DNA of 61,669 nt from Candidatus Omnitrophota bacterium (GCA_029004355.1 JAQURV010000001.1:1-61669); one strand, 5' to 3'; shown: positions 572 to 49,448, counted from the stretch's first letter. The notes: generated by a model not told the origin, from the letters alone. Translations and numbers: made by a program.

Positions 572-1447
572 ATGTTCGAGCTCTTGAAAAAGATTGTCAG
601 GTGGTTGCGGCTCTTCCCGGAAGTCGTTTTTACAGGCGACAGTTCCGGGAGGCATCTCAATAAGGTGCGGGATGTGATGGACAGATACGATATGGTGACT
701 TCTCCCTCGGAAGATTATTTCAAGGATAGGTACATGCATATTATCGATTCTGCGCTTGAGGCAGGGCGTCTGGCGTACGAAGGCCTTAAAGTCTTGGATG
801 CCGGATGCGGCCAGGGCAGATTGGCGATAGCTTTCGCTAAGAGAGGAAGCAGCGTGGACGCGGTAGACGTTTTCCCGGGGGTCCTGGATAAGGCCAGGAT
901 CCATGCGCAGAAAGCGGGTCTGTCGTCCGATCGGATAAGGTGGATCGAGGGAGGGTTGCCGGAAACGCTCGATGGGGTCGCGGACAATTCGTACGACCTT
1001 GTCGTCTGCGCAGAGGTCTTGTATATGTTGGAAGAAGCAGATGCGACGATAAGAGGGTTGGTCCGCGTATTGAGACCCGGAGGCGTCCTGGTGGTCTCCT
1101 CCAGGACCAGGTTATACTATTTAGCCCATTCGCTGATGAGCAAAGACTTTTTGAGGTTTAGCCGGGCCGCCAAGAATAATAGTTATAAAGATATAGGGCA
1201 GGCCCTCTCGTGGTCCGACCCCAGGGAGACCGAGGACCTTCTCGCGGCGCTGGATTTGAAAGATATACGAAGGTGGGGCATAGGCGTGCTTAGCGGCATC
1301 GAAGGCGACCCTACCGGGAAGTTCTGCTTTCCGCATGAATTGAACGGCGCCGAGCGGGAGACGTTGGGTCAGGCAGAAGACAAAATAGCCGGTGTATATT
1401 CCGATGCCGGAAGATATATTGTTTATTCCGGGGTGAAGAATGGGTAA
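572..1447 (+). CDS. Class I SAM-dependent methyltransferase
   Basis: 291-aa ORF with motif I VLDAGCGQGRLA, followed by VDAVD and LRPGGVLVV. It overlaps the next gene by 8 nt. Confidence 0.85.
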   Translation: MFELLKKIVRWLRLFPEVVFTGDSSGRHLNKVRDVMDRYDMVTSPSEDYFKDRYMHIIDSALEAGRLAYEGLKVLDAGCGQGRLAIAFAKRGSSVDAVDVFPGVLDKARIHAQKAGLSSDRIRWIEGGLPETLDGVADNSYDLVVCAEVLYMLEEADATIRGLVRVLRPGGVLVVSSRTRLYYLAHSLMSKDFLRFSRAAKNNSYKDIGQALSWSDPRETEDLLAALDLKDIRRWGIGVLSGIEGDPTGKFCFPHELNGAERETLGQAEDKIAGVYSDAGRYIVYSGVKNG

Positions 1448-2924
1448 CAAAAACAACTTTCGCGTCCTTCTTGTCTATGCCAATGCGCCGATGGAGCCCC
1501 TCATGCCGTTAGGCGTGGCGTGCCTGGCTACTGCTTTGCGGGAAGCGGGTTTCGATGCAAGGCTTTTTGACACCACATTTTATAAAAAGAGCGGCACCGG
1601 CAACAGCCAGGATGAAAGGGCCCTCAGCCTGCAGATAAAAGCGGCGGATTATTCTTCGGTCGGGATCAAGTCCCTGGAGACGGACCCGGTAAAGGACTTC
1701 GCGGCGGTCGTGGCGGATTTTAAACCGGACCTGATAGGGCTTTCATGCGTGGAGTTGACTTATACACAGGGCCTTAGGCTCCTGGATGCGGTAAAGGGAT
1801 GCGGGATACCAGTTGTCGTGGGCGGGTGCTTTGCCACGTTTTCCCCGGAAGAAGTCATCTCCTGCGATCTTGTGGATTACGTATGCGTCGGGGAAGGGGA
1901 AGATGCGATAGTCGAGTTATCGAGGAGGATATCGTCGGGGGTCTCCCCCGCAGGCATTCCCAACCTGTGGATGAAGGAAGGCGGCAGGGTCACGAAATGC
2001 GCAGGCATGAAGATAGTCGATATAGAGTCGGCCCCTATCCCAAGGTTCGACATCTTTGATCCGAAAAGAATATACAGGGCTATGGCCGGCAGGATATACA
2101 GGATGGTGCCCATAGAATTTTCCAGGGGGTGCCCTTACCAGTGCACATATTGCTCCGCGCCGTCTTATGCCAGGAAATTTTCCGGTTCCGGCAGATGGCT
2201 GAGATTCAAGACCATAGGGCAGGTGATCGCCGAGATAGACTTCTATATCAAAGAATACGACGCGGAATATTTTTATTTTATATCCGAGACTTTTCTGGCG
2301 ATGCCCGCCATATACAGGAGAGAGTTTTACGATGCGTACAAAAAGTACAAAAGACCGTTCTGGTTCAATACGCGGCCCGAGACGATAACGGAGGATGATA
2401 TAAAAGAGCTCGAGGATATAGGTTGCCACCGCATAAGCATTGGCGTGGAGAGCGGCAATGAAGAGTTCAGGACGAACAGGTTGAAGAGGCACTATTCCAA
2501 CGAAGATTGCCTGAAGGCCGTCGATATCGTCCTGAGATCTAAGATACAATTGTCCGTAAACAATATGCTGGGCTTCCCGGACGAGACGAGAGAGATGGTC
2601 TTCGATACCATCGAATTAAATCGTAAGTTCAAGGCAAAGAACCGCACCGTGTCTATCTTCCAGCCCTTCAGGGGGACAGAACTTTATGATTATTGCACAG
2701 CGAAGGGATACCTGGGTTCCGAAAGTATGTGCGCCGAGTCGTTTGCCACGCCCTTATTGGATATGCCGAGCCTGTCCCAGGATGAGATCAAAGGGCTTTA
2801 CAGGACTTTCAATCTATATGTGAACGCCGACAAGTCTTTGTGGCCTCATATAAAAAAGGCGGAGTCGCTGGATGAGGAAGGCGACAGGGCATTGTCCGAT
2901 CTGATCGAAAAGGTAAAGGTCTAA
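1440..2924 (+). CDS. B12-binding-domain radical SAM protein (paralog 1)
   Basis: 494 aa with the radical SAM motif FSRGCPYQCTYC. The N-terminal domain is flavodoxin/B12-binding-like (RVLLVYANAPMEP, VVVGGCFATFSPEE). Confidence 0.85.
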   Translation: MGNKNNFRVLLVYANAPMEPLMPLGVACLATALREAGFDARLFDTTFYKKSGTGNSQDERALSLQIKAADYSSVGIKSLETDPVKDFAAVVADFKPDLIGLSCVELTYTQGLRLLDAVKGCGIPVVVGGCFATFSPEEVISCDLVDYVCVGEGEDAIVELSRRISSGVSPAGIPNLWMKEGGRVTKCAGMKIVDIESAPIPRFDIFDPKRIYRAMAGRIYRMVPIEFSRGCPYQCTYCSAPSYARKFSGSGRWLRFKTIGQVIAEIDFYIKEYDAEYFYFISETFLAMPAIYRREFYDAYKKYKRPFWFNTRPETITEDDIKELEDIGCHRISIGVESGNEEFRTNRLKRHYSNEDCLKAVDIVLRSKIQLSVNNMLGFPDETREMVFDTIELNRKFKAKNRTVSIFQPFRGTELYDYCTAKGYLGSESMCAESFATPLLDMPSLSQDEIKGLYRTFNLYVNADKSLWPHIKKAESLDEEGDRALSDLIEKVKV

Positions 2925-2928: not shown

Positions 2929-4086
2929 ATGACGATACCGAACGGGAATAAGAAAGGGCCGGCTCTCTACGAAAAGCTGATCCCGGTCTCGAGCCCGTCC
3001 CTGGGCAAAGATGAGCTCGGCGAGATAGGGAAGGTCTTCGATTCGAAATGGCTCGGCCTTGGCAAGTGGGTGCTGGAATTCGAGAACGAAATAAAGCGGT
3101 TCCTGGGGGCGAAGAACGCCGTGGGGACCAGTTCCGGCACGACGGCGCTCCATCTGGCGCTCGATTCTATCGGGATCAAAAAGGGCGACAAGGTGATAGT
3201 GCCTTCGCTGACCTTTGCGGCTTCGGTGCAGTCGATAATGACCACAGGCGCGACGCCTGTATTCTGCGACGTGGAACCGGATACGCTCAATATGGATGTC
3301 GACGATCTTGCCCGCCGCATCACAAAGAAAGTCAGGGCGATAATGCCCGTCCATTACTCCGGTCTGGCGTGCGACATGGATGCTATCATGGAAATAGCGG
3401 GGAAGAACAGGGTAAGGGTGGTCGAAGATGCCGCGCATGCCTTCGGGTCATCATATAAAGGAAGGCGGATAGGTTCTTTTGGCGATGTTACATGTTTTAG
3501 CTTCGACCCGATAAAGAATATCACGTGCGGAGAAGGCGGCGCCATAACTACTAATGATGACAAGCTTGTGCGCACTATCTATAAGAAGAGGATACTGGGA
3601 ATAGATAAGGATACGTGGAGCCGCTACGCCCATAAGAGGGATTGGTTCTACAATGTCACCGAATTGGGGTTCCGCTACCACATGAGCAACATAAATGCCG
3701 CCATAGGGCTCGTCCAGATCAAAAAGTTCGATGATTTTATGCGTAAAAAACGGGCCATAGTGGAGCGGTATGACGAAGAGTTTTCCGGGATAGGCGGGAT
3801 CGAGCTTTTGAGGCGGGACTATGAAGATACCGCGCCTTTCAACTATATCATAAAGGTAAAGAGCGCTAAGAGGGACGGCCTGATGAAATTCCTGAAAGCG
3901 CGCGGCATAGACAGCGGGGTCCATTATATACCGAACCACATCCAGCCGTTCTTTAAGGATTTCAGAAAGAGGCTTCCCGTGACCGAAAAGGTATGGAAGG
4001 AGATACTGACCCTTCCGCTATATTATGGAATGTCGGATTCCGATATGGATAAGATCATAGATTCAGTAAAAACATTTTTTAAGTGA
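2929..4086 (+). CDS. DegT/DnrJ/EryC1/StrS-family PLP-dependent sugar aminotransferase
   Basis: 385 aa. Family hallmarks are GTSSGTTALHLAL, VPSLTFAASV and FSFDPIKNITCGEGGAI (PLP lysine context). Confidence 0.9.
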   Translation: MTIPNGNKKGPALYEKLIPVSSPSLGKDELGEIGKVFDSKWLGLGKWVLEFENEIKRFLGAKNAVGTSSGTTALHLALDSIGIKKGDKVIVPSLTFAASVQSIMTTGATPVFCDVEPDTLNMDVDDLARRITKKVRAIMPVHYSGLACDMDAIMEIAGKNRVRVVEDAAHAFGSSYKGRRIGSFGDVTCFSFDPIKNITCGEGGAITTNDDKLVRTIYKKRILGIDKDTWSRYAHKRDWFYNVTELGFRYHMSNINAAIGLVQIKKFDDFMRKKRAIVERYDEEFSGIGGIELLRRDYEDTAPFNYIIKVKSAKRDGLMKFLKARGIDSGVHYIPNHIQPFFKDFRKRLPVTEKVWKEILTLPLYYGMSDSDMDKIIDSVKTFFK

Positions 4087-6177: not shown

Positions 6178-7734
6178 ATGAAGATCGACAGTAAGAAAAA
6201 TACCAGGGTGATGTTGATCAATCCTCCTTTTCAGAGGCTGAAGGGGATAGCGCACATATACCTGCCTATCGGGCTTGGATATCTTACTTCATATATTTCT
6301 AAAGATGGCGGGGTCGAAGCGGTCATATACAACGCCGAGTTGCCGGGCCCTTCCGAAAAGCTCGTCTTTAATATGAGATATCGGGATATGCTGGGATTTC
6401 ACAGCAGATATATAGACGCCCTCCACGACGAAGGCAATTACGTGTGGAAGGAGATCCGCAAGACGATAGCGGATTTTGCCCCCGACATAGCCTGTCTTAC
6501 CGTCATGACCGCCAAATACGGTTCCGCGTTGAACGTCTCGAAGATCGCAAAAGCGGTCAACAAAGACTGTAAGGTTGTGTGGGGAGGTCCTCACCCTACG
6601 ATAGAGCCGGACGGCGTTTTGCGGAACCCGGCAGTGGACTACGCAGTGAGGGGAGAGGGCGAAGCGGCATTAAAAGGGCTTATCGGCCTGCTCTCCGATA
6701 ATAAGGACCCGTCCTCTGCGCAGTTGGAAGAGATAGCGGGCTTAAGCTATAAGACGCAAAACGGGATAAGACATAACCCTCCCGGCAAACTCATGGAAGA
6801 TCTCGACGCGCTGCCTCCTCCCGCAAAAGAGAAGGTCCTTTTCAAGGAGCGTTATCTTCCCTCATCATGGGGTGATATTATAACATTGCGCGGCTGTCCT
6901 TTCCGCTGCGGATATTGCGGCGCCCACAATATCTGGACGAGGCGCGTCCGTTATAGGAGGCCAGAAAAGGTCATAGAGGAGATAGTCTCCGTAATATCGA
7001 GATACGGCACCCGTGAGTTTTATTTCTGGGATGATAATTTTACGCTGGATAGAAAGAGGACTCTTAAATTGTGCGGTCTTCTGCGGAGCATGGACCAGCG
7101 TATAAGCTGGGGATGTACTACCAGGGTCGACATCCTGGATGACGAGATCGTCAGGGAGATGAAGGCCGCAGGATGCAGTAATATATCCATAGGGATCGAA
7201 AGCGGCAGCGAAAAGATGCTCAAATGTATCCACAAAGAGATTACCGTAGAGATGGTGATGAATGCCGTAGGCCTTCTCGATAAGCACGGTCTGAAATACG
7301 AGGCCTTCTTTATGGTGGGTTTCCCCGAAGAGACCAGGGACGACCTCGAAAAGACATTCGGTCTGATGAAGAACCTTAAGAATGGGAGGGTCTGCTTCAG
7401 CATATTCACGCCGTATCCCGGGACGGAGCAGTACGACGTCGCCAAAGATAACGGCCTTATACCCGATTCGCCCGACTGGAGCAGGTTTTCGCACCAGAGC
7501 AAAGAGAATTATTTCATGAAGAACGTGGAAGAGGACGAATTTAAAAGATTTGTAGAAAATATTTCGGTATGGATAGACGATAACAACGCAAAGAAGGCCG
7601 CGATCGGGGCCCTTTTATGGAACGCCTGTCTCAATATCGGGCCGTTAGTGAGAAACCCGAGGCTGGTAGTCAATAAGGTAAAGACGTTTCACGGCATCGT
7701 AAAGAACAAGATGAGAGCCCTGAATAAAAGATGA
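6178..7734 (+). CDS. B12-binding-domain radical SAM protein (paralog 2)
   Basis: 518 aa with VMLINPPF, VVWGGPHPTIEPD and LRGCPFRCGYC. Confidence 0.85.
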   Translation: MKIDSKKNTRVMLINPPFQRLKGIAHIYLPIGLGYLTSYISKDGGVEAVIYNAELPGPSEKLVFNMRYRDMLGFHSRYIDALHDEGNYVWKEIRKTIADFAPDIACLTVMTAKYGSALNVSKIAKAVNKDCKVVWGGPHPTIEPDGVLRNPAVDYAVRGEGEAALKGLIGLLSDNKDPSSAQLEEIAGLSYKTQNGIRHNPPGKLMEDLDALPPPAKEKVLFKERYLPSSWGDIITLRGCPFRCGYCGAHNIWTRRVRYRRPEKVIEEIVSVISRYGTREFYFWDDNFTLDRKRTLKLCGLLRSMDQRISWGCTTRVDILDDEIVREMKAAGCSNISIGIESGSEKMLKCIHKEITVEMVMNAVGLLDKHGLKYEAFFMVGFPEETRDDLEKTFGLMKNLKNGRVCFSIFTPYPGTEQYDVAKDNGLIPDSPDWSRFSHQSKENYFMKNVEEDEFKRFVENISVWIDDNNAKKAAIGALLWNACLNIGPLVRNPRLVVNKVKTFHGIVKNKMRALNKR

Positions 7735-8792
7735 AGAAGATAGTGACCATAATAGGCGCCCGGCCGCAGTTCATAAAGATGGCTCTAGTGTCGAAGGCGT
7801 TAAAGGCAAATGGCATAAAAGAGGTAGTGATCCATACCGGCCAGCATTATGACAAGAATCTATCGGCCATATTTTTTAAGGAACTCGGCATAGCCCGGCC
7901 CGACTATAACCTTGGCGTAGGATCCGGCCCTTATCGTGAGCAGGTGACCGGTATGCTCACCGGCATAGAGAAGGTCCTGGCCCGCGAAAAGCCGGCGATC
8001 GTATTGGTCTATGGAGATACCAATTCGACCGTTGCGGGGGCGTTCGCGGCGTCAAAGGGCGGGTTTGCGATCGCGCATGTAGAAGCTGGCTTAAGGAGCT
8101 TTAACCGCAATATGGCAGAAGAGGTGAACCGCATTATCACGGATGCCCTGGCAGACATATTGTTCTGTCCGACGAGGACGGCGGTCGATAACCTGGAAAA
8201 GGAAGGCAGGTCCGACGGCGTATATCTTGTCGGCGACGTGATGTATGATTCCATAAAATGGAATATGGACAGGATAAAGCACGCCCCCGGAAGATCACAG
8301 TACATTTTATGCACGATACACAGGGCGGAGAACGCGGATTCGGCAGAAAACTTACACGAAATATTCAAGGCCCTGGGTTCCATAAAAAAGAAGGTGATAT
8401 TGCCGCTCCATCCCAGGACAGCCGGGGCCTTAAAAAAGTATGGCATTAAGGCAGGGTCGAATATCGGCATCATCAAGCCGGTCAGTTATATGAAGATGCT
8501 CGACCTGGAACAGCATGCAAATGTCATAATTACCGATTCGGGCGGCGTTCAAAAAGAAGCGTTTATATTTGGTATACCCTGTGTTACCATAAGAGGCCAA
8601 ACGGAATGGGTGGAATCCGTCCGGAGCCGCATGAATATTGTCGTAGAAGCGAAGTCGGGAAAGATAGTATCGGCGGTTAGGAAAATGGAAAGACGCAGGA
8701 AGAAAGTAGACCCGGAAGTTTACTATGGCAATGGATACGCGCACCGGAAGATAGCCGATATACTTGAAAAGGAGCTCGCAGAGTCGAAATGA
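7731..8792 (+). CDS. wecB: UDP-N-acetylglucosamine 2-epimerase (non-hydrolysing type)
   Basis: 353 aa with IIGARPQFIKMA, HTGQHYD, YGDTNST and HVEAGLRSFNRNMAEEVNR. It starts with an ATGA overlap on the upstream stop. Confidence 0.85.
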   Translation: MKKIVTIIGARPQFIKMALVSKALKANGIKEVVIHTGQHYDKNLSAIFFKELGIARPDYNLGVGSGPYREQVTGMLTGIEKVLAREKPAIVLVYGDTNSTVAGAFAASKGGFAIAHVEAGLRSFNRNMAEEVNRIITDALADILFCPTRTAVDNLEKEGRSDGVYLVGDVMYDSIKWNMDRIKHAPGRSQYILCTIHRAENADSAENLHEIFKALGSIKKKVILPLHPRTAGALKKYGIKAGSNIGIIKPVSYMKMLDLEQHANVIITDSGGVQKEAFIFGIPCVTIRGQTEWVESVRSRMNIVVEAKSGKIVSAVRKMERRRKKVDPEVYYGNGYAHRKIADILEKELAESK

Positions 8793-9757
8793 AGAGAGTG
8801 CTGATAACCGGCGTTGCCGGAATGATCGGATCGCACCTGGCGGATGAGCTTTTAAATAGGGGGTACGCGGTAACGGGCATCGACAATCTTAATGTCGGCA
8901 CCAGAAAGAATATCGCGTCCAGCCTTAAGAATAGTAGTTTCAAATTTATAAAATGCGATATAACCGATCCCGCGTCGCTTAAAAAGGCCGCTTCGAAGAC
9001 AGAGATAATAGTGCACATGGCCGCCTCCAAAAAGATAGGGGAGTCGGGCGATGCCCTGAAGACCTTGAAGATAAATTGCGAAGGTACGCGCAACGTCTTC
9101 GATTGCGCTAAGGCCATCGGTGCGAAAGTGGTATTTGCTTCGACCTCGGATGTTTACGGGTCCTCAGGCGATATCCCGTTCAGGGAGGATGGCAGGCTTG
9201 TCATAGGTTCCCCGACGGCAAAGAGGTGGGCGTATGCGGTCTCGAAGATATACGGGGAGCAGCTGGCGTTTGCCTGCTACAAGGAAGACAATGTCCCGAT
9301 AGTGGTGCTTCGTTATTTCGGGGCCTTCAGCTCCCGTTCAAGTTTTACCTGGAGCGGCGGGCATATCCCTGTCTTTATCGACGCCGTTCTAAACGACAGG
9401 GAGATAGTGATCCACGGCGACGGCAAACAGACCCGTTCTATGGCATATGTGGATGATGTTGTGAACGGTACGGTGCTTGCTCTGGAGAGCCGTAAAGCTG
9501 TAGGCGAGATCTTCAATATAGGCAACGATGAAGAGGTGAGCGTTATCGATACCGCCAGGCTGATACAAAGAGTATGCGGCAAGAAGAAGATCAAGATACG
9601 ATTTGTCCCCCAGAGCAAGGTCTTTGGCGATTACGAAGAGATAAAGAGACGTGTGCCTGATCTTTCGAAGGCAAAGCTGTTCTTGGGATACGCGCCCAAG
9701 GTCAGTTTTGAAGAAGGTTTAAGGCTGGTTATAAAAACCCATAAACATAGGACATAA
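8789..9757 (+). CDS. NAD-dependent epimerase/dehydratase (extended SDR)
   Basis: 322 aa with GVAGMIGSHL (GxxGxxG) and the YAVSK catalytic YxxxK. ATGA overlap with the upstream gene. Confidence 0.85.
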   Translation: MKRVLITGVAGMIGSHLADELLNRGYAVTGIDNLNVGTRKNIASSLKNSSFKFIKCDITDPASLKKAASKTEIIVHMAASKKIGESGDALKTLKINCEGTRNVFDCAKAIGAKVVFASTSDVYGSSGDIPFREDGRLVIGSPTAKRWAYAVSKIYGEQLAFACYKEDNVPIVVLRYFGAFSSRSSFTWSGGHIPVFIDAVLNDREIVIHGDGKQTRSMAYVDDVVNGTVLALESRKAVGEIFNIGNDEEVSVIDTARLIQRVCGKKKIKIRFVPQSKVFGDYEEIKRRVPDLSKAKLFLGYAPKVSFEEGLRLVIKTHKHRT

Positions 9758-9763: not shown

Positions 9764-11185
9764 ATGGTCGATATTGTGCTGGTCTATCCTCCCGTCACGC
9801 TTACAGGGAGATACGGCGAAGTGGCGGGCGGCAGCGAAGTGCCTCCTCAGCCCCTCATCTATCTTTCCGCAATCCTGAAGAAGGCCGGATTTACCGTAGA
9901 GATAATAGACGCAAACGCACTGCGGTGGTCTTTAGAAGAGACGGTGGATAGCATTATAGCGCGGTCGCCAAAAGTAGTGGGCATCACCGCCCCGACCATG
10001 CTGATAGCCACAGCCGGACTTATTTCCGAGAAGGTAAAAGGACGCAATAAGGATATCCTTGCGGTAGTCGGAGGGCCCCATATCACGGCAGTGCCTGAGG
10101 AGACCATGGCTGCATATCCGCATATCGATATCGGCGTCATAGGAGAAGGCGAGATAACGGCCGTTGAGCTGATGAAGGCGGTCTCCGGGTCCGGCAAGAG
10201 ATCTCTCGATCCGGTGGACGGTATCATATACCGGCATAACGGCGGATTGAAGATGACCCGGAAGAGGGAATATATAAAAGACCTCGACACCTTACCCATG
10301 CCGGATTGGGGCGCTTTGCCGGACATACTCAGCCATTACCAGCAGTCCGTGGCAAGGATAGACCGGCTGCCGGCCATGTCTATTACTACATCGCGGGGGT
10401 GCCCGTATAGATGCACATTTTGCGCAAGGAACGTCTTCGGCAATACCTTAAGAACTCACAGCGCCGGCTATATCATGAAATGCATAAAGCATCTGAAAGA
10501 GAAATACAAGATAAGGAGCCTGGCCATAGAAGACGAGAATTTCGTCGTCTTTAAGAGCCGTCTTGCGGAACTTTGCCGGAGGATGATAGACGAGAAACTG
10601 GACATAACGTGGTCGTGCGCTTCAAGTATCAACGAAGTCAATCCGGAGATGCTGCGCCTCATGAAGAAGGCGGGCTGCTGGCAGATATCGTTCGGCATCG
10701 AAAGCGGTTCACAGCGCATACTCGATTTTATAAAGAAGGGGACGAAGATCCCGACCATCGAAAGCGCCCTGAAGATGACGAGGCGGGCCGGGATCATGAC
10801 CAAAGGTTATTTTATAATAGGCCATTTGACGGAGACTAAAGAGACTATAAGAGAGACGATAGATTTCGCCAAGAGGATATCCCTGGACGATTTCCAGATG
10901 TCTTTTATGGTGCCTTTGCCAGGGACCGAAGCATACACGATGGCGTGCGACTACGGCGCTTTCAATAACAACTGGTCGGAGATGAACATCTGGACGCCGG
11001 TCTTTATCCCGAAAGGCCTGACCCAGCATGACCTCGAGAGCCTGTCAAAGCAGGCCTTCAGGGAATTCTATTTCAGGCCCGGGCCCGTAGCGAATTTTTT
11101 AAAGAGGGCGTCCCGGCCGGCATACTTCAGGAAGTATTTTAAAGACGGCCTGAAGATCTTCAAATTCCTTTTAAAGAGCCGCTAA
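9764..11185 (+). CDS. B12-binding-domain radical SAM protein (paralog 3)
   Basis: 473 aa with IVLVYPP, VVGGPHITAVPEE and TSRGCPYRCTFC. Confidence 0.85.
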   Translation: MVDIVLVYPPVTLTGRYGEVAGGSEVPPQPLIYLSAILKKAGFTVEIIDANALRWSLEETVDSIIARSPKVVGITAPTMLIATAGLISEKVKGRNKDILAVVGGPHITAVPEETMAAYPHIDIGVIGEGEITAVELMKAVSGSGKRSLDPVDGIIYRHNGGLKMTRKREYIKDLDTLPMPDWGALPDILSHYQQSVARIDRLPAMSITTSRGCPYRCTFCARNVFGNTLRTHSAGYIMKCIKHLKEKYKIRSLAIEDENFVVFKSRLAELCRRMIDEKLDITWSCASSINEVNPEMLRLMKKAGCWQISFGIESGSQRILDFIKKGTKIPTIESALKMTRRAGIMTKGYFIIGHLTETKETIRETIDFAKRISLDDFQMSFMVPLPGTEAYTMACDYGAFNNNWSEMNIWTPVFIPKGLTQHDLESLSKQAFREFYFRPGPVANFLKRASRPAYFRKYFKDGLKIFKFLLKSR

Positions 11186-11201: not shown

Positions 11202-12005
11202 ATGGCAGACAGGACCATACGGTTTATAATCCCCGCTTATAACGAGGGAAGTAATATCGCTCCTTTGCTTGAGAAGACTGACCAGAAGATGCGCGAGAAG
11301 GGATGTCGCTATCAGATAATCATAATCAACGACGGGAGCACCGACGATACAAAAGATACCGTTGAAAAATACGCAAAGCGTATGCCCATACAATTATTCA
11401 ATCACGATGGCAATAAGGGGGTCGGCGAAGCTTTCAGGAACGGTTTTGAGCTTGCCCTGAAAGGATCTTCCGGAGCCGACGTTATCATTACAAAAGAGGC
11501 CGACAACACGAGCGACCTGGGCATATTGGACAGTATGTTAAAGAAGATCGACGAAGGATACGATGTCGTGCTGGCCTCGTGTTATGCAAAAGGAGGCAAG
11601 GTGGTCGGGACTACCATAGACCGCCGCATCCTGAGTTCTATCGCGAATCTGTTCTTGAGTATCTTCTTCCCGATCAAAGGGGTGCGCACGTACAGTTCGT
11701 TCTACAGGGCGTATCGCGCAGATAACCTTAAGCGAGCCTTTGCGGCTTACGATAACCGCCTGATAGAAGAGAAGGGATTCGTCTGCATGGTGGAGATGCT
11801 GATAAAGCTGAGCCGCCTCCCCCTGCAGATAACGGAGATACCGATGATCCTCCGGTGCGATTTCAGGAAAGGCAAGAGCAAGATGAATAAGACGCGCACG
11901 ATAGCCACATACCTGCGTTTGATGACAAAGCGGTTCGGGAACGATGCGGGTATAGACGAAATAGTGGATCGATATAATAATATCACCGCGAGGCCCAAGG
12001 TATGA
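11202..12005 (+). CDS. Dpm1/ArnC-like GT2 (polyprenyl-phosphate sugar synthase type)
   Basis: 267 aa. It has a short soluble GT2 domain with IIPAYNEGSNI, IIIINDGSTDDT and ITKEADNTSD. An AAGGAG SD lies upstream, and the next gene is a GT-C-like membrane protein. Confidence 0.75.
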   Translation: MADRTIRFIIPAYNEGSNIAPLLEKTDQKMREKGCRYQIIIINDGSTDDTKDTVEKYAKRMPIQLFNHDGNKGVGEAFRNGFELALKGSSGADVIITKEADNTSDLGILDSMLKKIDEGYDVVLASCYAKGGKVVGTTIDRRILSSIANLFLSIFFPIKGVRTYSSFYRAYRADNLKRAFAAYDNRLIEEKGFVCMVEMLIKLSRLPLQITEIPMILRCDFRKGKSKMNKTRTIATYLRLMTKRFGNDAGIDEIVDRYNNITARPKV

Positions 12006-35231: not shown

Positions 35232-36266
35232 ATGAACTATATTCAGATACTGGATGTTTTTTTCATAGCGGGCTTTATAGCGTATTTGCTGACGCCTTTC
35301 ATAAGAACGGTGGCTACAAAATTCGGCTATCTCGATCATCCGCAGGATAATAAGGTGCACGCCCATCCTATGCCTCTCCTGGGAGGCGTATCGATATTCG
35401 CTGCCTTTGCGATATCCCTGCTGACAAAAGAAGCGGTTATCGCTCTGCCGCCGGTCAGGGCGATACTGATAGGCGCGCTCATATTATTTATCATCGGCCT
35501 TATCGACGATAAGATGGGGATGATGCCTAACTTTAAGCTCCTGGGGCAATTCCTGGCGGCGATGATCATAATCAAATCCGGCCTCAGGATAGAGTTCGTC
35601 AATAATTATTATCTGAGCATCGTTATTACATATATCTGGATAATCGGCATAACGAACGCTTTAAATCTTTTGGATAACATGAACGGCCTGTCCGCCGGTA
35701 TAGCCGCTATCGCGGCCGTATTCTTCGGTATAATATCGTATTTGAACGGACAGCATGAAGTGAGCGCCGTGGCGTTTGCGCTTGCCGGAGGCGCGCTCGG
35801 GTTTATCAAATACAATTTCCCGAAAGCCAGCATATTTATGGGAGACACAGGCAGCCTGGTATTGGGGTACGTGCTTTCCGCTATCGCGATAATGGGCAAC
35901 TGGAAGACTTATATACTCACTACCTCTATCATGGTCCCGATCCTGGTGCTTGGTTATCCTATCTTCGATACGACCCTGGTCTCCGTAATGCGCATATTGG
36001 AAAGACGGTCGATATTCCAGGGCGGCAAAGACCATTCTTCGCATCGCCTGGCCCTCATAGGATTTAAGCGTTTCAAAACGGTGCTTATTATTTACGCCAT
36101 ATGTATCTTCCTTGGTCTCATGGCATTGGCCATAAGCAATGTGCACTGGCGCATAGGGATCCCGCTCCTGGTTGCCACGGTCGTTATAATGCTTTTACTT
36201 GGCGTGCGCTTAAGCCTTGTCGATACAAAACGCTACGGAAGAAAAAAAGGGGCTTATGAAAACTGA
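35232..36266 (+). CDS. Polyprenyl-phosphate sugar-1-phosphate transferase (MraY/WecA superfamily, initiating enzyme)
   Basis: 344 aa and polytopic, with IDDKMGM, NALNLLDNMNGLSAG and GDTGSLVLGY. Confidence 0.85.
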   Translation: MNYIQILDVFFIAGFIAYLLTPFIRTVATKFGYLDHPQDNKVHAHPMPLLGGVSIFAAFAISLLTKEAVIALPPVRAILIGALILFIIGLIDDKMGMMPNFKLLGQFLAAMIIIKSGLRIEFVNNYYLSIVITYIWIIGITNALNLLDNMNGLSAGIAAIAAVFFGIISYLNGQHEVSAVAFALAGGALGFIKYNFPKASIFMGDTGSLVLGYVLSAIAIMGNWKTYILTTSIMVPILVLGYPIFDTTLVSVMRILERRSIFQGGKDHSSHRLALIGFKRFKTVLIIYAICIFLGLMALAISNVHWRIGIPLLVATVVIMLLLGVRLSLVDTKRYGRKKGAYEN

Positions 36267-37482: not shown

Positions 37483-37483
37483 T

Positions 37484-41985: not shown

Positions 41986-42770
41986 CAAGTATTCCCGAAA
42001 GAGAGAAGTTGTCCGTGATAGTGCTGACCAGGAACGAAGAGGATATCGTCGCCAGGTGCCTGGAGAGCGTTAAGTGGGCGGATGAGATCATCGTGATCGA
42101 TGATAATTCCACGGATTCGACCGTCGAGATAGCCAGGCGGTACACGGATAAAGTAATAGCCCATCCATTGAACGGTAATTTTTCCGAACAGAGGAACTTG
42201 GGCAGCGACCGCGCGTCGGGTGACTGGATATTGCAGATGGATGCGGACGAATGCGTTACGGACGGCCTTCGTGAAAAGGTGAGCGAGATATTAAGGAGCG
42301 GATCCGCCATCTCCGCTTTCAGGTTCAAAAGGCTGAATAATTTTTGCGGAAAATTCCTCACTTCAGGCGGAGAGGGTCTGCACAGGCCTTTGCGGTTATT
42401 CAGGAAAGGTAAGGCAAGGTTCTCGGGCGGAAGGATCTCGGAAGAACTTAAGGTCGACGGCCCCACGGGCGAGATAGACGCGGTGATGGAGCATTATAAT
42501 TTTCCGGATATCCACCATTACGTCGCCACGCAGGATTTTTACAGCGGGATGGAAGCGAGGGCGTTATACGAGAAAGCGGGTCTTTTGCCGGAGAAGAAAC
42601 TCCGTAAAGAATTGATCTTCGGGCCGGTCAAATTATTCTTCAAGATATATGTAAAGAGAGGCGCTTACAGGGACGGCCTGCACGGCCTGGTCTTCGCGAT
42701 GCTTTCGGCCTGGCGGAGGTTCCTTATATACGCAAAATACTGGGAAGATAATCAGGAGAAATATAAATGA
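41982..42770 (+). CDS. GT2 glycosyltransferase, WaaE/KdtX-like (paralog B1)
   Basis: 262 aa with LSVIVLTRNEEDIVARCLESVKWADEIIVIDDNSTDSTVEIARRYTDKV and QMDADE. Confidence 0.85.
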   Translation: MTSIPEREKLSVIVLTRNEEDIVARCLESVKWADEIIVIDDNSTDSTVEIARRYTDKVIAHPLNGNFSEQRNLGSDRASGDWILQMDADECVTDGLREKVSEILRSGSAISAFRFKRLNNFCGKFLTSGGEGLHRPLRLFRKGKARFSGGRISEELKVDGPTGEIDAVMEHYNFPDIHHYVATQDFYSGMEARALYEKAGLLPEKKLRKELIFGPVKLFFKIYVKRGAYRDGLHGLVFAMLSAWRRFLIYAKYWEDNQEKYK

Positions 42771-44476
42771 GGGTGTTAGGTTTCGGCGGCCCGGGATTTT
42801 TACATGATCCGGCCGCGGCTATCGTGGTAGACGGGAAGGTGGTGGCAGCCGTCGAGGAAGAGAGGCTCATAAGGCAGAAACATGCCGTCGGTAAGCCGTG
42901 CCTTAAGTCGATCGAATATTGCCTGGAACAGTCGGCCACACGGCCCGAAGAGATAGATGCCGTGGCTTTCCCGTGGTCCTTCGACGCGTTCAACGCGAAA
43001 AGATGGCAATATGCTTTTAAGACGGCTCTTTCCGAGCCCTCCCGCGCATATAAAGCGATAGTCAAGTCCGGCAAGCAGTCCGCCTCTACAAGAAAGGCGG
43101 TCTTCGAAATGCTCGGCCGTTTTGGCATCAAGGTCGCGCCGGAGAAGGTCTTCTTCGTGGAGCATCATATCGCGCACGCCGCAAGCGCCTACCTCCTGTC
43201 GGGTTTCAAAGAGGCGGCGATCATGAGTATCGACGGAAGCGGTGAATTCACCTCGACGCTCTTTGCTGAAGGGTCCGGCGGCGGGATAAGGAAGATAAAA
43301 GAGATCGACCTGCCCGATTCGCTCGGACGGTTCTATTCCACGATGACGGCGTATCTCGGTTTCGACCCTAATGACGGGGAGTATAAACTCATGGGCATGG
43401 CGCCGTACGGCGACGCATCCAAAGTCTCCCTTTCGGATATCATCTCATGCGACGGCCGCACCTTTAAGACGAACCCGGAATATGTCTGGCCGATCCGCTC
43501 CCGCAGATATATAAAGTACGCGATGATACCCAGGAAACTTGTCGACCGCTTCGGCCCGCCGAGAAAAGGAGACGGGCTCGAAGAGCCGTATACTCACATC
43601 GCCGCCGCGACCCAAAAAATATTCGAGGATTCGGTAATGAAACTTATGGACTTCCATCTGGCGAACGTGCTCCGGAGGACCGGCAACCTGGCCTATGCGG
43701 GAGGGTGCGCGCTCAACGTTTCTTTGAACCGTAAACTTGTCGAAAGTCCCATGGTCAAGAATATATTCGTCCAGCCGGCGTCGCACGATGCCGGCACATC
43801 GCTGGGCGCCGCGGTATTCGCGGCTAATATGCTCGGCGATAAGATAGCGCCGATGAAGAACGCGTACCTCGGTCCCGAATACACAAACGACGAGATGATC
43901 AGGAGCTTGAAGAGGCCTGAGCTTGAATACCGGCACTCAAGCGATATAGAAAAAGAGGTTGCCGGGCTCCTGGCAAGCGGCGAGGTTGTCGGGTGGTTCC
44001 AGGGCAGGATGGAATTCGGCCCCCGCGCGCTCGGCAACAGGTCGATACTCGGTAATCCTACGATCCCGGGAACTAGTGACCGCATAAACGAGATGGTGAA
44101 GTTCAGGGAGAAGTGGAGGCCGTTCTGCCCTTCGATATTGCGCGAATACGCAAAAGAGATCATAGGCAGAGATATGGACGCGCCGTTCATGACGCTCAGT
44201 TTTCAAGTTACGGAAAAATGGAAAGGCCGGATACCCGAAGTCGTGCATGTCGACGGGTCTATGCGGCCGCAGACCGTCAGCGGGGATGATAACCCCAGGT
44301 TCCACCGGTTGCTCAAGCATTTCTTTGAGAAGACCGGTGTGCCGGTCTTGATAAATACGTCCCTTAACAGGAGAGGCGAGCCGATGGTGTGCAGCCCCGA
44401 AGATGCCGTTACGATGTATCTCGGTTCAGGGCTTGACTACCTGGCGATAGGCGATTTTCTCGCCCGCCGTAAATAG
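42767..44476 (+). CDS. Carbamoyltransferase (NodU/CmcH family)
   Basis: 569 aa with MRVLGFGG..HDPAAAIVVDGKVVAAVEEERLIRQKH, EHHIAHAASAY and a C-terminal FGPRALGNRSILGNP. Confidence 0.9.
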   Translation: MRVLGFGGPGFLHDPAAAIVVDGKVVAAVEEERLIRQKHAVGKPCLKSIEYCLEQSATRPEEIDAVAFPWSFDAFNAKRWQYAFKTALSEPSRAYKAIVKSGKQSASTRKAVFEMLGRFGIKVAPEKVFFVEHHIAHAASAYLLSGFKEAAIMSIDGSGEFTSTLFAEGSGGGIRKIKEIDLPDSLGRFYSTMTAYLGFDPNDGEYKLMGMAPYGDASKVSLSDIISCDGRTFKTNPEYVWPIRSRRYIKYAMIPRKLVDRFGPPRKGDGLEEPYTHIAAATQKIFEDSVMKLMDFHLANVLRRTGNLAYAGGCALNVSLNRKLVESPMVKNIFVQPASHDAGTSLGAAVFAANMLGDKIAPMKNAYLGPEYTNDEMIRSLKRPELEYRHSSDIEKEVAGLLASGEVVGWFQGRMEFGPRALGNRSILGNPTIPGTSDRINEMVKFREKWRPFCPSILREYAKEIIGRDMDAPFMTLSFQVTEKWKGRIPEVVHVDGSMRPQTVSGDDNPRFHRLLKHFFEKTGVPVLINTSLNRRGEPMVCSPEDAVTMYLGSGLDYLAIGDFLARRK

Positions 44477-46288: not shown

Positions 46289-47357
46289 CTGCGATATAAT
46301 AATGCCGGTCTGGAACGAGCCGGATGTCACGAGGGAATGCGTGGATTCCATCGTTGAACACACCCGCTATCCTTACAGGCTGGTCATAATAGACAACGCG
46401 AGCGATGCCCCGACAAAGGAGTATCTTCTGAGCCTGAACGGGCGGGCGGATGTGAAGGCGGAGATCATAAGAAATGAAGAGAACCTTGGTTTTGTGAAGG
46501 CCGTTAACCAGGGGATAAGATTTTCGGACGCGCCTTATATCTGCATCATGAACAACGACACGGTCGCTACGGAAGGCTGGTTGGAGACGATGGTAGCCGC
46601 TATGGAGGGCCACAAGGATGTGGGGCTCATAAATCCCACGAGCAATACCTTCAGCCATGATCCGGATGCGGGCGAGACGATAGATCAATACGCCGCCAAA
46701 CTGCGCCGTTTTACGAATAAGGTGCAGGAGCTCCACTGCTGCCGCTTCTTCTGCACGGTCATAAAACGGGAGGTCCTGGAAAAGCTGGGACCGCTCGACG
46801 AGATATACCATCTCGGCTATTTCGACGATACGGACTATTGCAAGAGGGCCCAGGGCTTGGGTTACAGGACGGCCCGCGCTAAGGGCGCATATGTCTACCA
46901 TAAAGAGAATACGAGCTTCAAGAAGCTGCGGGATAACAGCGCCCTCTTCAAGGCTAACGAGAAGATATTCCTGGAACGCTGGGGGCGGCATGTCAGGGTA
47001 GGGTATTTCCTCGACAAGATAAGGTCGAAAGAGAAGATAAATGAGGTGGCCGTTGAGGCGGCAAGGAGCGGGCACCAGATATTCCTGTTCATCAAAAAAG
47101 GTCTGGAATGGCCCGTAGGGCTGGATCATTACGACATAGTAAGGGTCGATGTAAATCCGCACCTCTTCGGCATCGTCTCGATATATAAGATCCTCAAGCG
47201 AAAGAAGAAGAAGGGCATAGAGGTCCTCCTGACGGACAGCCCTCTCTTCGGGGCTGTCCTTAATCTGACAAGATTTCTGCACGGTTCAGATGTATTCGTC
47301 AATGTCAGGAAAGAAGCGCTTATGGACAGGCTTAAAGAAAGATCGAAGATATTTTAA
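46275..47357 (+). CDS. GT2 glycosyltransferase with conserved polybasic C-terminal domain (paralog A4)
   Basis: 360 aa with CDIIMPVWNE, LVIIDNASDAPTKEYL, IMNNDT and DDTDY. The C-terminal domain contains ...IYKILKRKKKKGIEVLLTDS. Confidence 0.85.
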   Translation: MKENSCDIIMPVWNEPDVTRECVDSIVEHTRYPYRLVIIDNASDAPTKEYLLSLNGRADVKAEIIRNEENLGFVKAVNQGIRFSDAPYICIMNNDTVATEGWLETMVAAMEGHKDVGLINPTSNTFSHDPDAGETIDQYAAKLRRFTNKVQELHCCRFFCTVIKREVLEKLGPLDEIYHLGYFDDTDYCKRAQGLGYRTARAKGAYVYHKENTSFKKLRDNSALFKANEKIFLERWGRHVRVGYFLDKIRSKEKINEVAVEAARSGHQIFLFIKKGLEWPVGLDHYDIVRVDVNPHLFGIVSIYKILKRKKKKGIEVLLTDSPLFGAVLNLTRFLHGSDVFVNVRKEALMDRLKERSKIF

Positions 47358-47367
47358 AGGGGGCGCC

Positions 47368-48069
47368 ATGGCTGATGGTATAAATTTATCGGTTGTTATG
47401 CCGGTCTACAACGAGAAGGAGTTTGTCCTTACGATCATAAGTAAGGTACTCTCGCTCGATATGGTCAAAGAGCTGATAGTGGTCGATGATTATTCCACGG
47501 ACGGGACGCGCGATATCCTGAAGGATACCAGGTTCGACGGAAGGGTCAGCGTATACTATCACGACAAGAACATGGGCAAGGGCGCCGCGCTGCGCACGGG
47601 ATTTTCTCACGCGACAAAAGATATCGTAGTGGTGCAGGATGCGGACCTGGAATACGACCCGGAAGAGTTCAAGGAGATGATAAAGCCGATCGCCGACGGG
47701 CGGGCGGATGTCGTCTACGGGTCGAGGCTTTCGGGCGGGAAGACGCAGAGGGTCTACATGTTCTGGCACAGGGTCGGGAACGGCGTCCTTTCGTTCATCA
47801 CGAACTTTCTGTATAATTCCACGCTCACCGATATGGAGACCTGTTATAAGATGTTCACGAAGAAGGTGATCGACGGCATCAAGATAAAGTCCAATGACTT
47901 TTCCGTGGAACCGGAGCTTACCGCCAAGATCCTCAAGGATAAGTCTTTGAGGATATACGAGGTGCCCATATCTTATTACGGCAGGACATACGCCGAAGGC
48001 AAGAAGATATCCTGGAAGCACGGTTTCGGCGCTCTCTGGGCGCTTTTAAAGTATAGATTTACGGACTGA
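47368..48069 (+). CDS. Dpm1/GtrB-like GT2 (polyprenyl-phosphate sugar synthase type)
   Basis: I chose ATG 47368, so the track's start at 47290 is an overlap artefact. Motifs are LSVVMPVYNEKEFV, VVDDYSTDGT and VVQDADLEYDPEEF. Confidence 0.8.
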   Translation: MADGINLSVVMPVYNEKEFVLTIISKVLSLDMVKELIVVDDYSTDGTRDILKDTRFDGRVSVYYHDKNMGKGAALRTGFSHATKDIVVVQDADLEYDPEEFKEMIKPIADGRADVVYGSRLSGGKTQRVYMFWHRVGNGVLSFITNFLYNSTLTDMETCYKMFTKKVIDGIKIKSNDFSVEPELTAKILKDKSLRIYEVPISYYGRTYAEGKKISWKHGFGALWALLKYRFTD

Positions 48070-49448
48070 TGAAGATACTACTATTAAAACCATTCAATAA
48101 AAGCGACCATATCCAGCCCTCGCTGGGCCTTGGGTACCTCGCGCAGGCTATTCGCAAGGATCATGATGTGCGGATACTCGATTGCATAAAAGAGCGGATC
48201 GATGCGGATAGACTGGAAGGCGTGTTGGAAGAATACTCGCCCGACGTCCTCGGCATGCAATGCTATACCTTCGATCTCGGTTTCGTCGACGCCGCTCTCA
48301 AATCCGCAAAGGCGTTCAATAAGAAGATCGTGACCGTAGTCGGCGGGCCCCATCCTTCGGCCGCCTCGGCCGAAATGATGGATATCTTCAAGGATTCACT
48401 CGACTTCCTTTTTGCGGGAGAGGCGGAGATAGGATTCCCCAGGCTGCTGGAGCGCCTGAATAGCGGCGTTAAAGATCTTACGGGAGTGCCGGGGCTGGTC
48501 TGGAGGGAGGCCGGTATCTTAAGGTCGAATCCCAAAGCGGTGGTGGAAGATCTGGACCTTATACCGATGCCTGCGTGGGACCTCATCCGCCCCGAGACAT
48601 ATCCTGAGGCGCAGCACGGAGCTTTCTTTAAACAGTTCCCGATAGCGCCCATCATGATAACGCGAGGATGCCCCTATCCATGCACCTTCTGCGCCGGAGG
48701 AGTGGTCTCAGGAAAGAAGATCCGCCGCAGGTCGATCGCGACCGTACTCAAGGAACTGACCTACCTTAATAGAGAACGCGGAATAAAAGAGTTCCATGTG
48801 ATCGACGACAATTTCACCATGGATATGGCCTATGCTAAGGATTTCCTGAGGGCCCTTAAAACCCTGAACCTCGGCATGACATGGGCCGTTCCTAACGGCG
48901 TCAGGATGGATGCCCTGGATAACGAGCTTCTGGGCCTCATGAAGGAGACCGGGCTTTACATAATATCTTTAGGCATAGAATCCGGGTCCGACAGAGTACT
49001 TCGCGACATGAAGAAGAGCCTGACGACGGCTAAGATAAGAGAGTGCGTGAAGAAGATCAATGACGCCGGCATAGATGTTTCCGGGTTCTTTATCGTAGGC
49101 TTCCCGGGCGAGACCGAAGGATCTATAAAAGAGACGATACGCCTTTCGCTCGACCTGAAGCTTGTCAGGGCGAATTTCTTTACGTATCTTCCTTTTCCGG
49201 GATCCGAAAGTTACGAAAAATTAAGGTCGGCGAATAAGCTCCAGGGCATAGACTGGAAGAATTTCTATTTTATGACCGCCTCATATACGCCCGAAGGCCT
49301 TACGAGAAAGAAGCTGAAAAATCTACAGCGGCTCGCGTTTACCAGGTTCTACCTGAGGCCGCGCATAATCCTGTATAACCTGTTGTCGATACAGTCGTTC
49401 AGGCATCTGGCATTCCTATTCAAGAGGTTATTCCGATGGTTCGTCTAA
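48069..49448 (+). CDS. B12-binding-domain radical SAM protein (paralog 8)
   Basis: 459 aa. The start is at a TGATG junction with the upstream stop. Motifs are MKILLLKPF, TVVGGPHPSAASAE and ITRGCPYPCTFC. Confidence 0.85.
   Translation: MKILLLKPFNKSDHIQPSLGLGYLAQAIRKDHDVRILDCIKERIDADRLEGVLEEYSPDVLGMQCYTFDLGFVDAALKSAKAFNKKIVTVVGGPHPSAASAEMMDIFKDSLDFLFAGEAEIGFPRLLERLNSGVKDLTGVPGLVWREAGILRSNPKAVVEDLDLIPMPAWDLIRPETYPEAQHGAFFKQFPIAPIMITRGCPYPCTFCAGGVVSGKKIRRRSIATVLKELTYLNRERGIKEFHVIDDNFTMDMAYAKDFLRALKTLNLGMTWAVPNGVRMDALDNELLGLMKETGLYIISLGIESGSDRVLRDMKKSLTTAKIRECVKKINDAGIDVSGFFIVGFPGETEGSIKETIRLSLDLKLVRANFFTYLPFPGSESYEKLRSANKLQGIDWKNFYFMTASYTPEGLTRKKLKNLQRLAFTRFYLRPRIILYNLLSIQSFRHLAFLFKRLFRWFV

Follow-up and report, generated by a model that had tools for sequence, protein, structure and literature searches.

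Eight class-B-type radical SAM genes in a surface-glycan locus of Candidatus Omnitrophota: candidate enzymes for the radical tailoring of sugars

What might eight divergent radical S-adenosylmethionine (SAM) enzymes do within a single sugar-assembly locus? The question is raised by 61,669 nt of chromosomal DNA from a Candidatus Omnitrophota bacterium (GCA_029004355.1 JAQURV010000001.1:1-61669), referred to here in its full length as the window, in which eight genes of the cobalamin-type (class B) radical SAM architecture are interspersed among genes for the assembly of a surface glycoconjugate. We suggest, with a probability of roughly 0.55, that these class-B-type enzymes tailor the sugars of this lipopolysaccharide (LPS)-type locus by radical chemistry, at least two of them on lipid-linked monosaccharides. 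The case is built on domain architecture, the predicted fold of copies 4 and 7, the glycan genes that surround the set, the great age of the paralogs and gene modules that are conserved between genomes. Tailoring of glycans by class-B-type radical SAM enzymes is of a known kind; what stands out is the density of copies and a recurrent module of a family 2 glycosyltransferase (GT2), a radical SAM enzyme and a GT-C glycosyltransferase, which had not been recognized in the initial annotation.

The eight open reading frames (ORFs) marked out in that annotation are all located on the + strand, and each was found to begin with ATG and to end at a stop codon: rSAM1 (1440..2924, 494 aa), rSAM2 (6178..7734, 518 aa), rSAM3 (9764..11185, 473 aa), rSAM4 (13533..14960, 475 aa, with an alternative upstream ATG at 13521), rSAM5 (19942..21372, 476 aa), rSAM6 (22751..24205, 484 aa), rSAM7 (29243..30682, 479 aa) and rSAM8 (48069..49448, 459 aa). 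As had been proposed, the motif RGCP(Y/F)xCx(Y/F)C occurs once in every one of them, with its first cysteine at residue 180-240 (RGCPYQCTYC at residue 231 in rSAM1). The pattern CxxxCxxC has exactly eight matches in the + strand translations, one in each ORF, and the sole other match in six frames (- strand, 58703) stands beside a stop codon and outside genes. Seven copies contain GGPHx(S/T), whereas rSAM1 has GGCFAT in its place and also carries an insertion in its N-domain, and the N-terminal strand said to end often in PP does so in four of the eight. All copies match both Pfam domains, B12-binding (PF02310) at 49-87 bits against a cut-off of 32.1 and Radical_SAM (PF04055) at 61-95 bits against 29.5; the variant rSAM1 scores 67.5 and 89.6 bits, respectively, and the lowest B12-binding score of the set (49.4 bits) is that of rSAM7. 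The class-B architecture claimed for the set is thus borne out by Pfam in all eight. Eight class-B-type genes within 48 kb are far beyond chance.

No clear transmembrane segment was found in the eight radical SAM proteins by hydropathy scan, whereas the GT-C proteins of the locus are polytopic. A membrane-bound form of the radical SAM enzymes was considered and rejected, the sole match (rSAM4 residues 72-91) being borderline and inside the predicted Rossmann N-domain. Nor is an auxiliary Fe-S cluster indicated, the only invariant cysteines across 67 homologs being the three of the motif.

The predicted structures extend the domain assignment. AlphaFold2 models of rSAM4 and rSAM7 (predicted local distance difference test, pLDDT, 91.5 and 83) both consist of a Rossmann N-domain with five strands, the radical SAM barrel and, at the C-terminus, helices, and both match the solved class-B enzymes MgmA, TokK, CysS, TsrM and OxsB at E < 1e-15 in Foldseek. 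The order of matches is AprD4, TsrM, MgmA, OxsB, CysS, TokK for rSAM4 and MgmA, CysS, AprD4, TsrM, TokK, OxsB for rSAM7. AprD4 (PDB 6FD2) superimposes on rSAM4 over the full length (TM-score 0.74/0.77) and is also the best PDB sequence match for six of the eight copies and for a profile of all eight, these sequence alignments beginning at residue 139 or later and covering the core only. Alignments to cobalamin-bound MgmA, TokK, CysS, TsrM or OxsB, on the other hand, reach into the N-domain in seven copies, the exception being rSAM7, and this similarity speaks in favour of putative cobalamin binding in those seven. A motif order S...(26-29 aa)...GG...GEGE is common to all eight copies, apart from copy 2, where Ser is replaced by Thr, and copies 5 and 8, which have GDGE or GEAE. 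The motif DxHxxG is absent from all eight, which fits the base-off mode in which cobalamin would be bound as in every solved class-B structure. AprD4 and ArsL, however, have similar N-domains and no cobalamin, AprD4 being a sugar 1,2-diol dehydratase with a Rossmann-like N-domain (PMC12931638). A Pfam B12 match is therefore no proof of cofactor use, and "cobalamin-type" is used here as a domain-level call on a putative cofactor.

Assignment to families was attempted with NCBIfam, whose scores also served as a proxy, in place of a tree, for comparison with GenK, Fom3, HpnP, MoeK5 and Cds. The best partial match is HpnJ (TIGR03471) for rSAM3, rSAM4 and rSAM6, at 197-221 bits against a cut-off of 577.6 (214 bits for rSAM3), and BchE (TIGR02026) for rSAM2, rSAM5 and rSAM7, at no more than 201 bits against 481 (192 bits for rSAM2). 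rSAM8 comes closest to Sden_1168 (171 bits), the cut-offs of the Sden_1168 and PhpK P-methyltransferase families (575 and 600) remaining out of reach, and rSAM1 to TIGR04072, a lipid-biosynthesis B12/radical SAM family (110 bits against 360). Scores against the AprD4 family (NF033070) are at most 125 bits against 500 and involve the core only. Among the genes of the window there are none for hopanoids (hpn/shc) or phosphonates.

The copies had been described as strongly diverged and old, and this view is supported by comparison with related genomes. Pairwise identity within the set is 23-34%, compared to 60-80% for syntenic orthologs of copies 2, 4, 5 and 8 in other genomes, a relation by which recent amplification was rejected; judged from their sequences, the eight copies are ancient paralogs. 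Copies 2, 4 and 5 have syntenic one-to-one orthologs at 60-74%, with the next-best matches to other copies at ~30%. The principal relatives are two syntenic loci, L002 and L009 (NCBI assemblies GCA_041643055.1 and GCA_041643075.1), and a third locus, L003: the rSAM2 ortholog is 60% identical (L009), those of rSAM4 64-68% with unchanged neighbours (L002, L003, L009) and those of rSAM5 63-74% (L002, L009). When a genome collection was scanned for rSAM4 relatives, matches were found at only 28-29% identity. The eight copies are not equivalent. rSAM3 is missing from the otherwise collinear L002, where WecB, the epimerase and the GT2 genes are contiguous, and rSAM6 from the otherwise collinear L009, where GT-C c is followed directly by a GT4 gene; these two variable members are dispensable in syntenic relatives. 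rSAM8, in contrast, has at least 120 clusters at 61-80% identity, all named ones being Omnitrophota, and is a lineage-wide core gene of this group.

The surroundings of the eight genes are those of a surface glycan. About 50 genes, all on the + strand, form a co-directional and tightly packed locus from the left edge of the window to ~53.9 kb, and this locus is one for LPS or O-antigen-type surface glycoconjugate assembly. Components required of such a locus are present in the form of WecA-like (PF00953), Wzy_C and GT9 genes; WecB scores above its cut-off, and GmhB-like and heptosyltransferase II-like genes score just under theirs. The glycosyltransferases comprise 10 GT2, 5 GT4, 1 GT9 (heptosyltransferase-like) and 3 PMT_2-type GT-C enzymes plus 1 weaker GT-C candidate. 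Precursor genes include WecB, 5 NAD epimerase/dehydratases and 2 DegT aminotransferases, one of them DesI-like, and there are further genes for a flavin adenine dinucleotide (FAD) oxidoreductase, an AsnB-type amidotransferase, a NodU-type carbamoyltransferase, 2 methyltransferase-like proteins (one weak), a GmhB-like phosphatase and a GT28 protein resembling monogalactosyldiacylglycerol (MGDG) synthase. The sugar-gene neighbours listed in the initial annotation (class I methyltransferase, two DegT, WecB and NAD epimerases, GT2, GT4, PMT_2-type GT-C, AsnB) were all recovered, and the carbamoyltransferase, WecA-like, Wzy_C, GT9 and FAD oxidoreductase genes add to that list. Packing of each copy against its neighbours by 17 nt or less, also proposed there, holds on both flanks of copies 1-6 (-8 to +16 nt) and breaks down at copy 7, which has a downstream gap of 83 nt. 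What looks like a 396-nt gap after copy 8 is taken up by an ORF of 135 aa, which overlaps the stop of copy 8 by 13 nt.

Within this locus rSAM4 and rSAM8 each lie in a module that is conserved between genomes. rSAM4 stands between two polytopic membrane proteins, GT-C a (12002..13531, +; PMT_2 33.8 bits against a cut-off of 26.1) and GT-C b (15637..17310, +; PMT_2 41.3 bits, with 46-47% orthologs in L002 and L009), and upstream of GT-C a there is a small GT2 (11202..12005, +, 267 aa) that resembles a polyprenyl-phosphate-sugar synthase. The best NCBIfam partial match of this GT2 is PgaC and the next four are ArnC, PpgS, AglJ and PgfS, which are carrier-lipid sugar synthases or related enzymes; all are below cut-off. 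The order GT2s, GT-C a, rSAM4, GT-C b, FAD oxidoreductase, DegT recurs in L002, L003 and L009. rSAM4 is flanked by GT-C proteins, and followed downstream by the oxidoreductase and DegT, in all four loci compared (the window, L002, L003 and L009), and the small GT2 is kept upstream of GT-C a and rSAM4 in L002 and L003. A further polytopic membrane protein, GT-C c (21369..22754, +), is a weak candidate with a sub-cut-off PMT_2 score (19.6 bits), and has a 43% ortholog after rSAM5 in L009.

The module around rSAM8 is more compact. Directly upstream is a small GT2 (47290..48069, +, 259 aa) that resembles a polyprenyl/dolichyl-phosphate-sugar synthase; its best partial matches are AglJ (115 bits), PpgS, PgfS, dolichyl-P-hexose transferase and ArnC, none of which reaches its cut-off. 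By contrast, the chain-elongating TuaG, EpsE, PglI and WcaA are the enzymes matched by the GT2s at 4088 and 28268. Downstream follow the 135-aa ORF (49436..49843, +) and the PMT_2-like, polytopic GT-C d (49845..51227, +; 25.9 bits against the cut-off of 26.1), the position of which is conserved. As in the other GT-C proteins, many hydrophobic segments were found in GT-C d by hydropathy scan (partly overlapping in GT-C a). The 135-aa ORF matches no Pfam or NCBIfam family and has just one hydrophobic stretch, at the N-terminus, which is probably a membrane anchor; counterparts of 121-145 aa occupy the same position in five Omnitrophota contigs (L091, L092, L094, L095, L096). The arrangement GT2s, GT2 (232-259 aa), rSAM8, small ORF (121-138 aa), GT-C, HAD, (epimerase), MGDG synthase, UDG, PriA is kept in L091 and L094-L096. 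In L092 a rearranged quartet (small ORF, PMT_2, GT2, rSAM8) stands alone among unrelated genes.

These arrangements suggest how the enzymes might act. All eight would be cytoplasmic tailoring enzymes that use 5'-deoxyadenosyl-radical chemistry on glycan sugar intermediates. In the rSAM4 and rSAM8 modules the small GT2 would make a polyprenyl-phosphate-linked monosaccharide at the cytoplasmic face, in the manner of ArnC, PpgS or AglJ, the radical SAM enzyme would modify the lipid-linked sugar, and after flipping the adjacent GT-C would attach the sugar, on the periplasmic side, to the glycan or the lipid A-core. At least two copies thus probably act on monosaccharides linked to a lipid carrier, before periplasmic transfer. 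For rSAM1, rSAM2, rSAM3 and rSAM5, which are beside DegT, WecB or epimerase genes, nucleotide sugars are possible substrates instead. rSAM8 might provide a conserved core step in this lineage, and rSAM3 and rSAM6 seem to behave like accessory decorations. Tailoring at the lipid-linked stage is known from ArnD and DprE1/E2. Other precedents are the series HpnI (GT2), HpnK and HpnJ (radical SAM), which acts on hopanoid-bound glucosamine, and Cds, which acts on a lipid hexose head group (PMC13459092).

By analogy, C-methylation of sugars at unactivated carbons, the commonest class-B reaction, is the likeliest chemistry. It has the highest prior because every group with a characterized member in the sequence-similarity network of the family contains C-methyltransferases (PMC12931638). 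Ring contraction of the HpnJ/Cds kind and deoxygenation of the AprD4/DesII kind would be alternatives, and the C-alkyl chemistry put forward in the initial annotation is itself a matter of analogy only. A more far-reaching proposal, which we advance tentatively, is that the quartet of GT2, class-B radical SAM enzyme, small membrane protein and GT-C might constitute a new periplasmic glycan-decoration system, in which a polyprenyl-phosphate monosaccharide would be radically rebuilt before GT-C transfer. The sugar might be C-methylated, or its ring might be contracted to give a carbocyclic or cyclitol-like unit, in line with what has been proposed for HpnJ and Cds.

Several observations weigh against the tailoring of locus sugars by class-B chemistry as described. 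None of the eight copies reaches a curated NCBIfam cut-off, the best attaining no more than ~40% of it, and the type assigned to the small GT2s is based on sub-threshold partial matches. Substrate, product and cofactor are all putative, being read from sequence. The top Foldseek match of rSAM4, AprD4, binds no cobalamin and dehydrates a sugar diol, and non-methylating, cobalamin-independent chemistry is therefore a live option; moreover, methylases cannot be told from other class-B enzymes by any structural feature, according to a review (PMC12931638), and cobalamin synthesis is found in <75% of Omnitrophota genomes (PMC10066038). No exporter or flippase (Wzx, ABC exporter, GtrA, ArnE/F) was recognized in the window with Pfam and NCBIfam, GT-C homologs were not detected beside the radical SAM genes in most of the wider metagenome loci, and in one locus (L093) the rSAM8 ortholog is solitary.

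The strongest competitor to tailoring at the lipid-linked stage is that all eight enzymes act only on soluble nucleotide sugars, GT-C adjacency being mere operon packing. They would then be GenK/GenD1-like C-methyltransferases, or DesII/AprD4-like deaminases or dehydratases, that supply unusual nucleoside diphosphate sugars to GT2 and GT4 enzymes. DegT is the commonest partner of such radical SAM genes (13 metagenome loci), rSAM1 and rSAM5 abut DegT genes at gaps of 4 and 2 nt, and DegT-b, the neighbour of rSAM5, is DesI-like (331 bits); DesI works with the radical SAM enzyme DesII. The top structural match of rSAM4 and the rarity of GT-C homologs in the wider metagenome sample point the same way. 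What makes this explanation the less likely of the two is the modules themselves, for the L092 quartet of GT2, rSAM8, small ORF and GT-C stands without nucleotide-sugar genes, and rSAM4 is GT-C-flanked on both sides in four independent loci.

Two other kinds of substrate were weighed. Lipid moieties (acyl, isoprenoid or polyprenyl chains) might be methylated, cyclized or cross-linked by the eight enzymes, as by GrsA/B, Hgm, HpnP/R or ladderane-type enzymes, and sugars would then not be touched. Lipids are a prominent target of class-B radical SAM enzymes, and homologs of Mss and Hbs are present in Omnitrophota (10.1101/2023.10.20.563219; PMC13459092); rSAM1 finds its best match in a lipid-biosynthesis family (TIGR04072), and an MGDG-synthase-like gene ends the array. 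Yet the immediate neighbours are sugar enzymes and glycosyltransferases, scores to lipid families are all far under cut-off, and genes for fatty acids or isoprenoids, like those for Tes, Mss or Grs, are missing from the window, so we consider modification of lipids unlikely. Less likely by a wide margin is the maturation of ribosomal peptides or proteins, in the manner of C-methyltransferases of RiPPs (peptides made on ribosomes and modified after translation), ApyD or MgmA, the products being glycosylated later by the glycosyltransferases of the locus. MgmA is a top structural match, but the partial matches to ApyD (at most 177 bits), rSAM_ocin_1 and MgmA are far under cut-off, the intergenic gaps leave no room for precursor genes, and the array has no protease, leader-binding or peptide-export genes. 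A RiPP locus was rejected on these grounds. The modification of sugars, in at least two copies probably on a lipid carrier, is the reading that we prefer.

How widespread is such an arrangement? In a motif-based metagenome scan at least 600 stretches match, and of the 600 listed 519 encode relatives; 45 loci with a minimum length of 10 kb and a mean of 16 kb were retrieved as a sample. Homologs of the window's sugar genes are found in most of these 45 (at least one in 31, at least two in 25), and 18 contain two or more radical SAM copies and 4 contain three or more; the densest among them has four copies in 17-21 kb. DegT homologs are the commonest partner, in 13 of 80 metagenome loci scanned. 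Of the GT2 homologs 17 of 32 best match the two carrier-lipid-type GT2s, and the type at 47290 is the commonest GT2 beside these radical SAM genes. The only loci with detected homologs of the GT-C genes are the close relatives, L010 and L052. Relatives of rSAM1 in metagenomes, 37-42% identical, are near DegT, GT2 or NAD-epimerase genes, and a Patescibacteria genome (L005) has three copies among GT4 genes. Though extreme, the array is not singular, and the pattern is widespread in metagenome loci. The statement of the initial annotation that no characterized battery of this kind is known was upheld, none being described for LPS, capsule or S-layer pathways in the full-text literature searched and in two 2026 reviews. 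What comes nearest is one unstudied radical SAM gene, which belongs to the Campylobacter jejuni HS:19 capsule cluster. The largest class-B sequence groups are unexplored, and glycans are unmentioned in a 2026 review (PMC12931638).

A few side observations were also made. An Omnitrophota contig, Ga0172381_10000017 (L010, 1-13918), has four B12-type radical SAM genes and one plain radical SAM gene within 21 kb, in the company of a PMT-type GT-C, a GDSL lipase and two genes of the peptidase-U32 family, which includes O2-independent hydroxylases. The rSAM4 family has 13,099 clusters (50% identity) at E <= 1e-30, and six giant proteins of ~1,500-2,300 aa (P0244, P0248, P0266, P0347, P0351 and P0356) contain 3-4 tandem rSAM4-matching stretches, so that class-B radical SAM modules are elsewhere fused into single polypeptides.

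The remaining genes of the array can be described from left to right, all on the + strand. A class I SAM methyltransferase (572..1447) overlaps the start of rSAM1 by 8 nt, and a PseC/ArnB-like DegT aminotransferase (2929..4086) follows rSAM1 at a distance of 4 nt. Between rSAM2 and rSAM3 are WecB, a UDP-GlcNAc 2-epimerase (291 bits against a cut-off of 210), and an NAD-dependent epimerase/dehydratase (7731..9757). Next to GT-C b lies an FAD oxidoreductase of amine-oxidase or PRK07208 type (17307..18740), assigned by Pfam (NF005548 282 bits against 389) and kept beside GT-C b and DegT-b in relatives, and then the DesI-like DegT-b aminotransferase (18758..19939; DegT 290 bits, TIGR04427 DesI 331 bits against 650), after which rSAM5 and GT-C c follow directly. 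The PRK07208-type oxidoreductase and DesI-like DegT are always paired beside GT-C b (17307-19939 in the window, L002, L009), and in relatives a PglD-like acetyltransferase comes after the pair; this suggests a route of oxidation, transamination and (acylation) to an amino sugar. An AsnB-type amidotransferase (26442..28325; TIGR03108 605 bits against 817), the WecA-like phosphoglycosyl transferase, Wzy_C ligase or polymerase and GT9 heptosyltransferase-like genes (35232..38560), and a NodU/CmcH-type carbamoyltransferase (42767..44476) are situated between rSAM6 and the rSAM8 module. Upstream of rSAM8 are 6-7 GT2 genes in a row (38497-48069), a run that is broken in the window by an epimerase and the carbamoyltransferase and that is kept across Omnitrophota contigs (L094-L096). 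Its conservation suggests a conserved core oligosaccharide, not a variable O-antigen.

At its right end, before UDG and PriA, the array has a GmhB-like HAD phosphatase, an NAD epimerase/dehydratase and the MGDG-synthase-like GT28 (51071..53949), and these genes keep their synteny in L091 and L094-L096. For the right half of the locus a mobile or accessory island was also considered and was rejected in view of its synteny with UDG, PriA and Fmt in 4 other Omnitrophota contigs; GC content, moreover, is even across the window (46-54%), and tRNA genes and Rfam matches are absent from it. PriA (54614-56614) is 70-86% identical to dozens of Omnitrophota PriA proteins and 100% identical to one that NCBI assigns to an Omnitrophica metagenome-assembled genome, in keeping with the host. 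At the left edge the window cuts through a protein, of which the C-terminal part remains as the first ORF (1-555, +), with no Pfam match; the glycan array thus probably extends further to the left, and additional radical SAM copies may be found there. The sole long intergenic stretch is the gap between PriA and Fmt (56614-57568, 953 nt), which contains a 138-aa ORF (56958-57374) with a hydrophobic N-terminus resembling a signal peptide; in L091 a gap of ~680 nt without annotated genes is found at the same position. Beyond it are two GalT/HIT-like genes on the + strand, of which the second begins near 60.9 kb and runs off the window; both are overlapped by a 468-aa ORF on the - strand (60216-61622) that has no family match and in all likelihood is a shadow ORF.

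The class-B radical SAM superfamily is huge and largely unassigned, its unassigned members being known to be abundant, and the locus bears on the assignment of their functions. A sizeable fraction of one class-B subgroup is located in surface-glycan loci of Omnitrophota, Patescibacteria, Acidobacteria and other lineages, a pattern which suggests that uncultured anaerobes have a layer of envelope chemistry yet to be explored. The four-gene module of rSAM8 is compact, conserved and tractable for heterologous expression. A defined reaction, if found, would add a new type of step to lipid-carrier glycosylation and could reveal C-branched or carbocyclic sugars, which might serve as biomarkers or as determinants of phage or predator recognition, Omnitrophota being a phylum thought to be host-dependent. 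If the quartet were indeed a decoration system, Omnitrophota and other uncultured anaerobes would have surface glycans with several radical-installed, hydrolysis-resistant modifications.

Known systems resemble parts of the locus to different degrees. In desosamine biosynthesis DesI and DesII carry out a C4 deoxygenation, and a DesI-like DegT gene is likewise immediately upstream of rSAM5; the DesI cut-off of 650 bits is not attained, however, and DesII is not known to have a B12-type N-domain. MgmA/QCMT, TokK, CysS, TsrM and OxsB share the two-domain architecture, the five-strand Rossmann N-domain and the lack of DxHxxG with the window copies, but at an identity of no more than 15-22%; they act on peptides, a carbapenem, tryptophan and a nucleoside, and TokK, CysS, TsrM and OxsB have additional C-terminal domains. 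AprD4, from apramycin biosynthesis, acts on an aminoglycoside sugar and is the best fold match of rSAM4, but has no cobalamin and resembles the window copies in sequence only in the core. GenK, GenD1/GntE and MoeK5, which are likened here by description, are class-B enzymes that methylate unactivated sugar carbons in the assembly of glycosides or phosphoglycolipids (PMC12931638). They belong to actinomycete secondary-metabolite clusters with one or two such enzymes, however, not eight. Of these, the moenomycin cluster has, like the window, AsnB-like amidotransferases and a carbamoyltransferase.

Other parallels are with systems that handle lipid-bound sugars. In the HpnI/HpnK/HpnJ pathway to hopanoid cyclitol ethers a lipid receives an amino sugar from a GT2, and it is this lipid-bound sugar that a radical SAM enzyme with a B12 domain then remodels (PMC13459092), the reaction of HpnJ itself being based on genetics only. 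The window copies differ in scoring far below the HpnJ cut-off, hopanoid genes are absent from the window, and here a GT-C would pass the sugar on. Periplasmic glycosylation modules of the Arn, Gtr and PpgS/Rv3779 type pair a polyprenyl-phosphate-sugar synthase of family GT2 with a GT-C; the window has, beside polytopic PMT_2 GT-C proteins, small GT2s with sub-cut-off matches to ArnC, PpgS and AglJ, although it lacks a recognized GtrA or ArnE/F-type flippase. ArnD illustrates that tailoring is possible on an undecaprenyl-phosphate sugar, and no Arn/Gtr/PpgS-type module is known to contain a radical SAM enzyme. The rSAM4 and rSAM8 modules would thus seem to follow the logic of Arn, Gtr and PpgS, with a radical SAM enzyme inserted.

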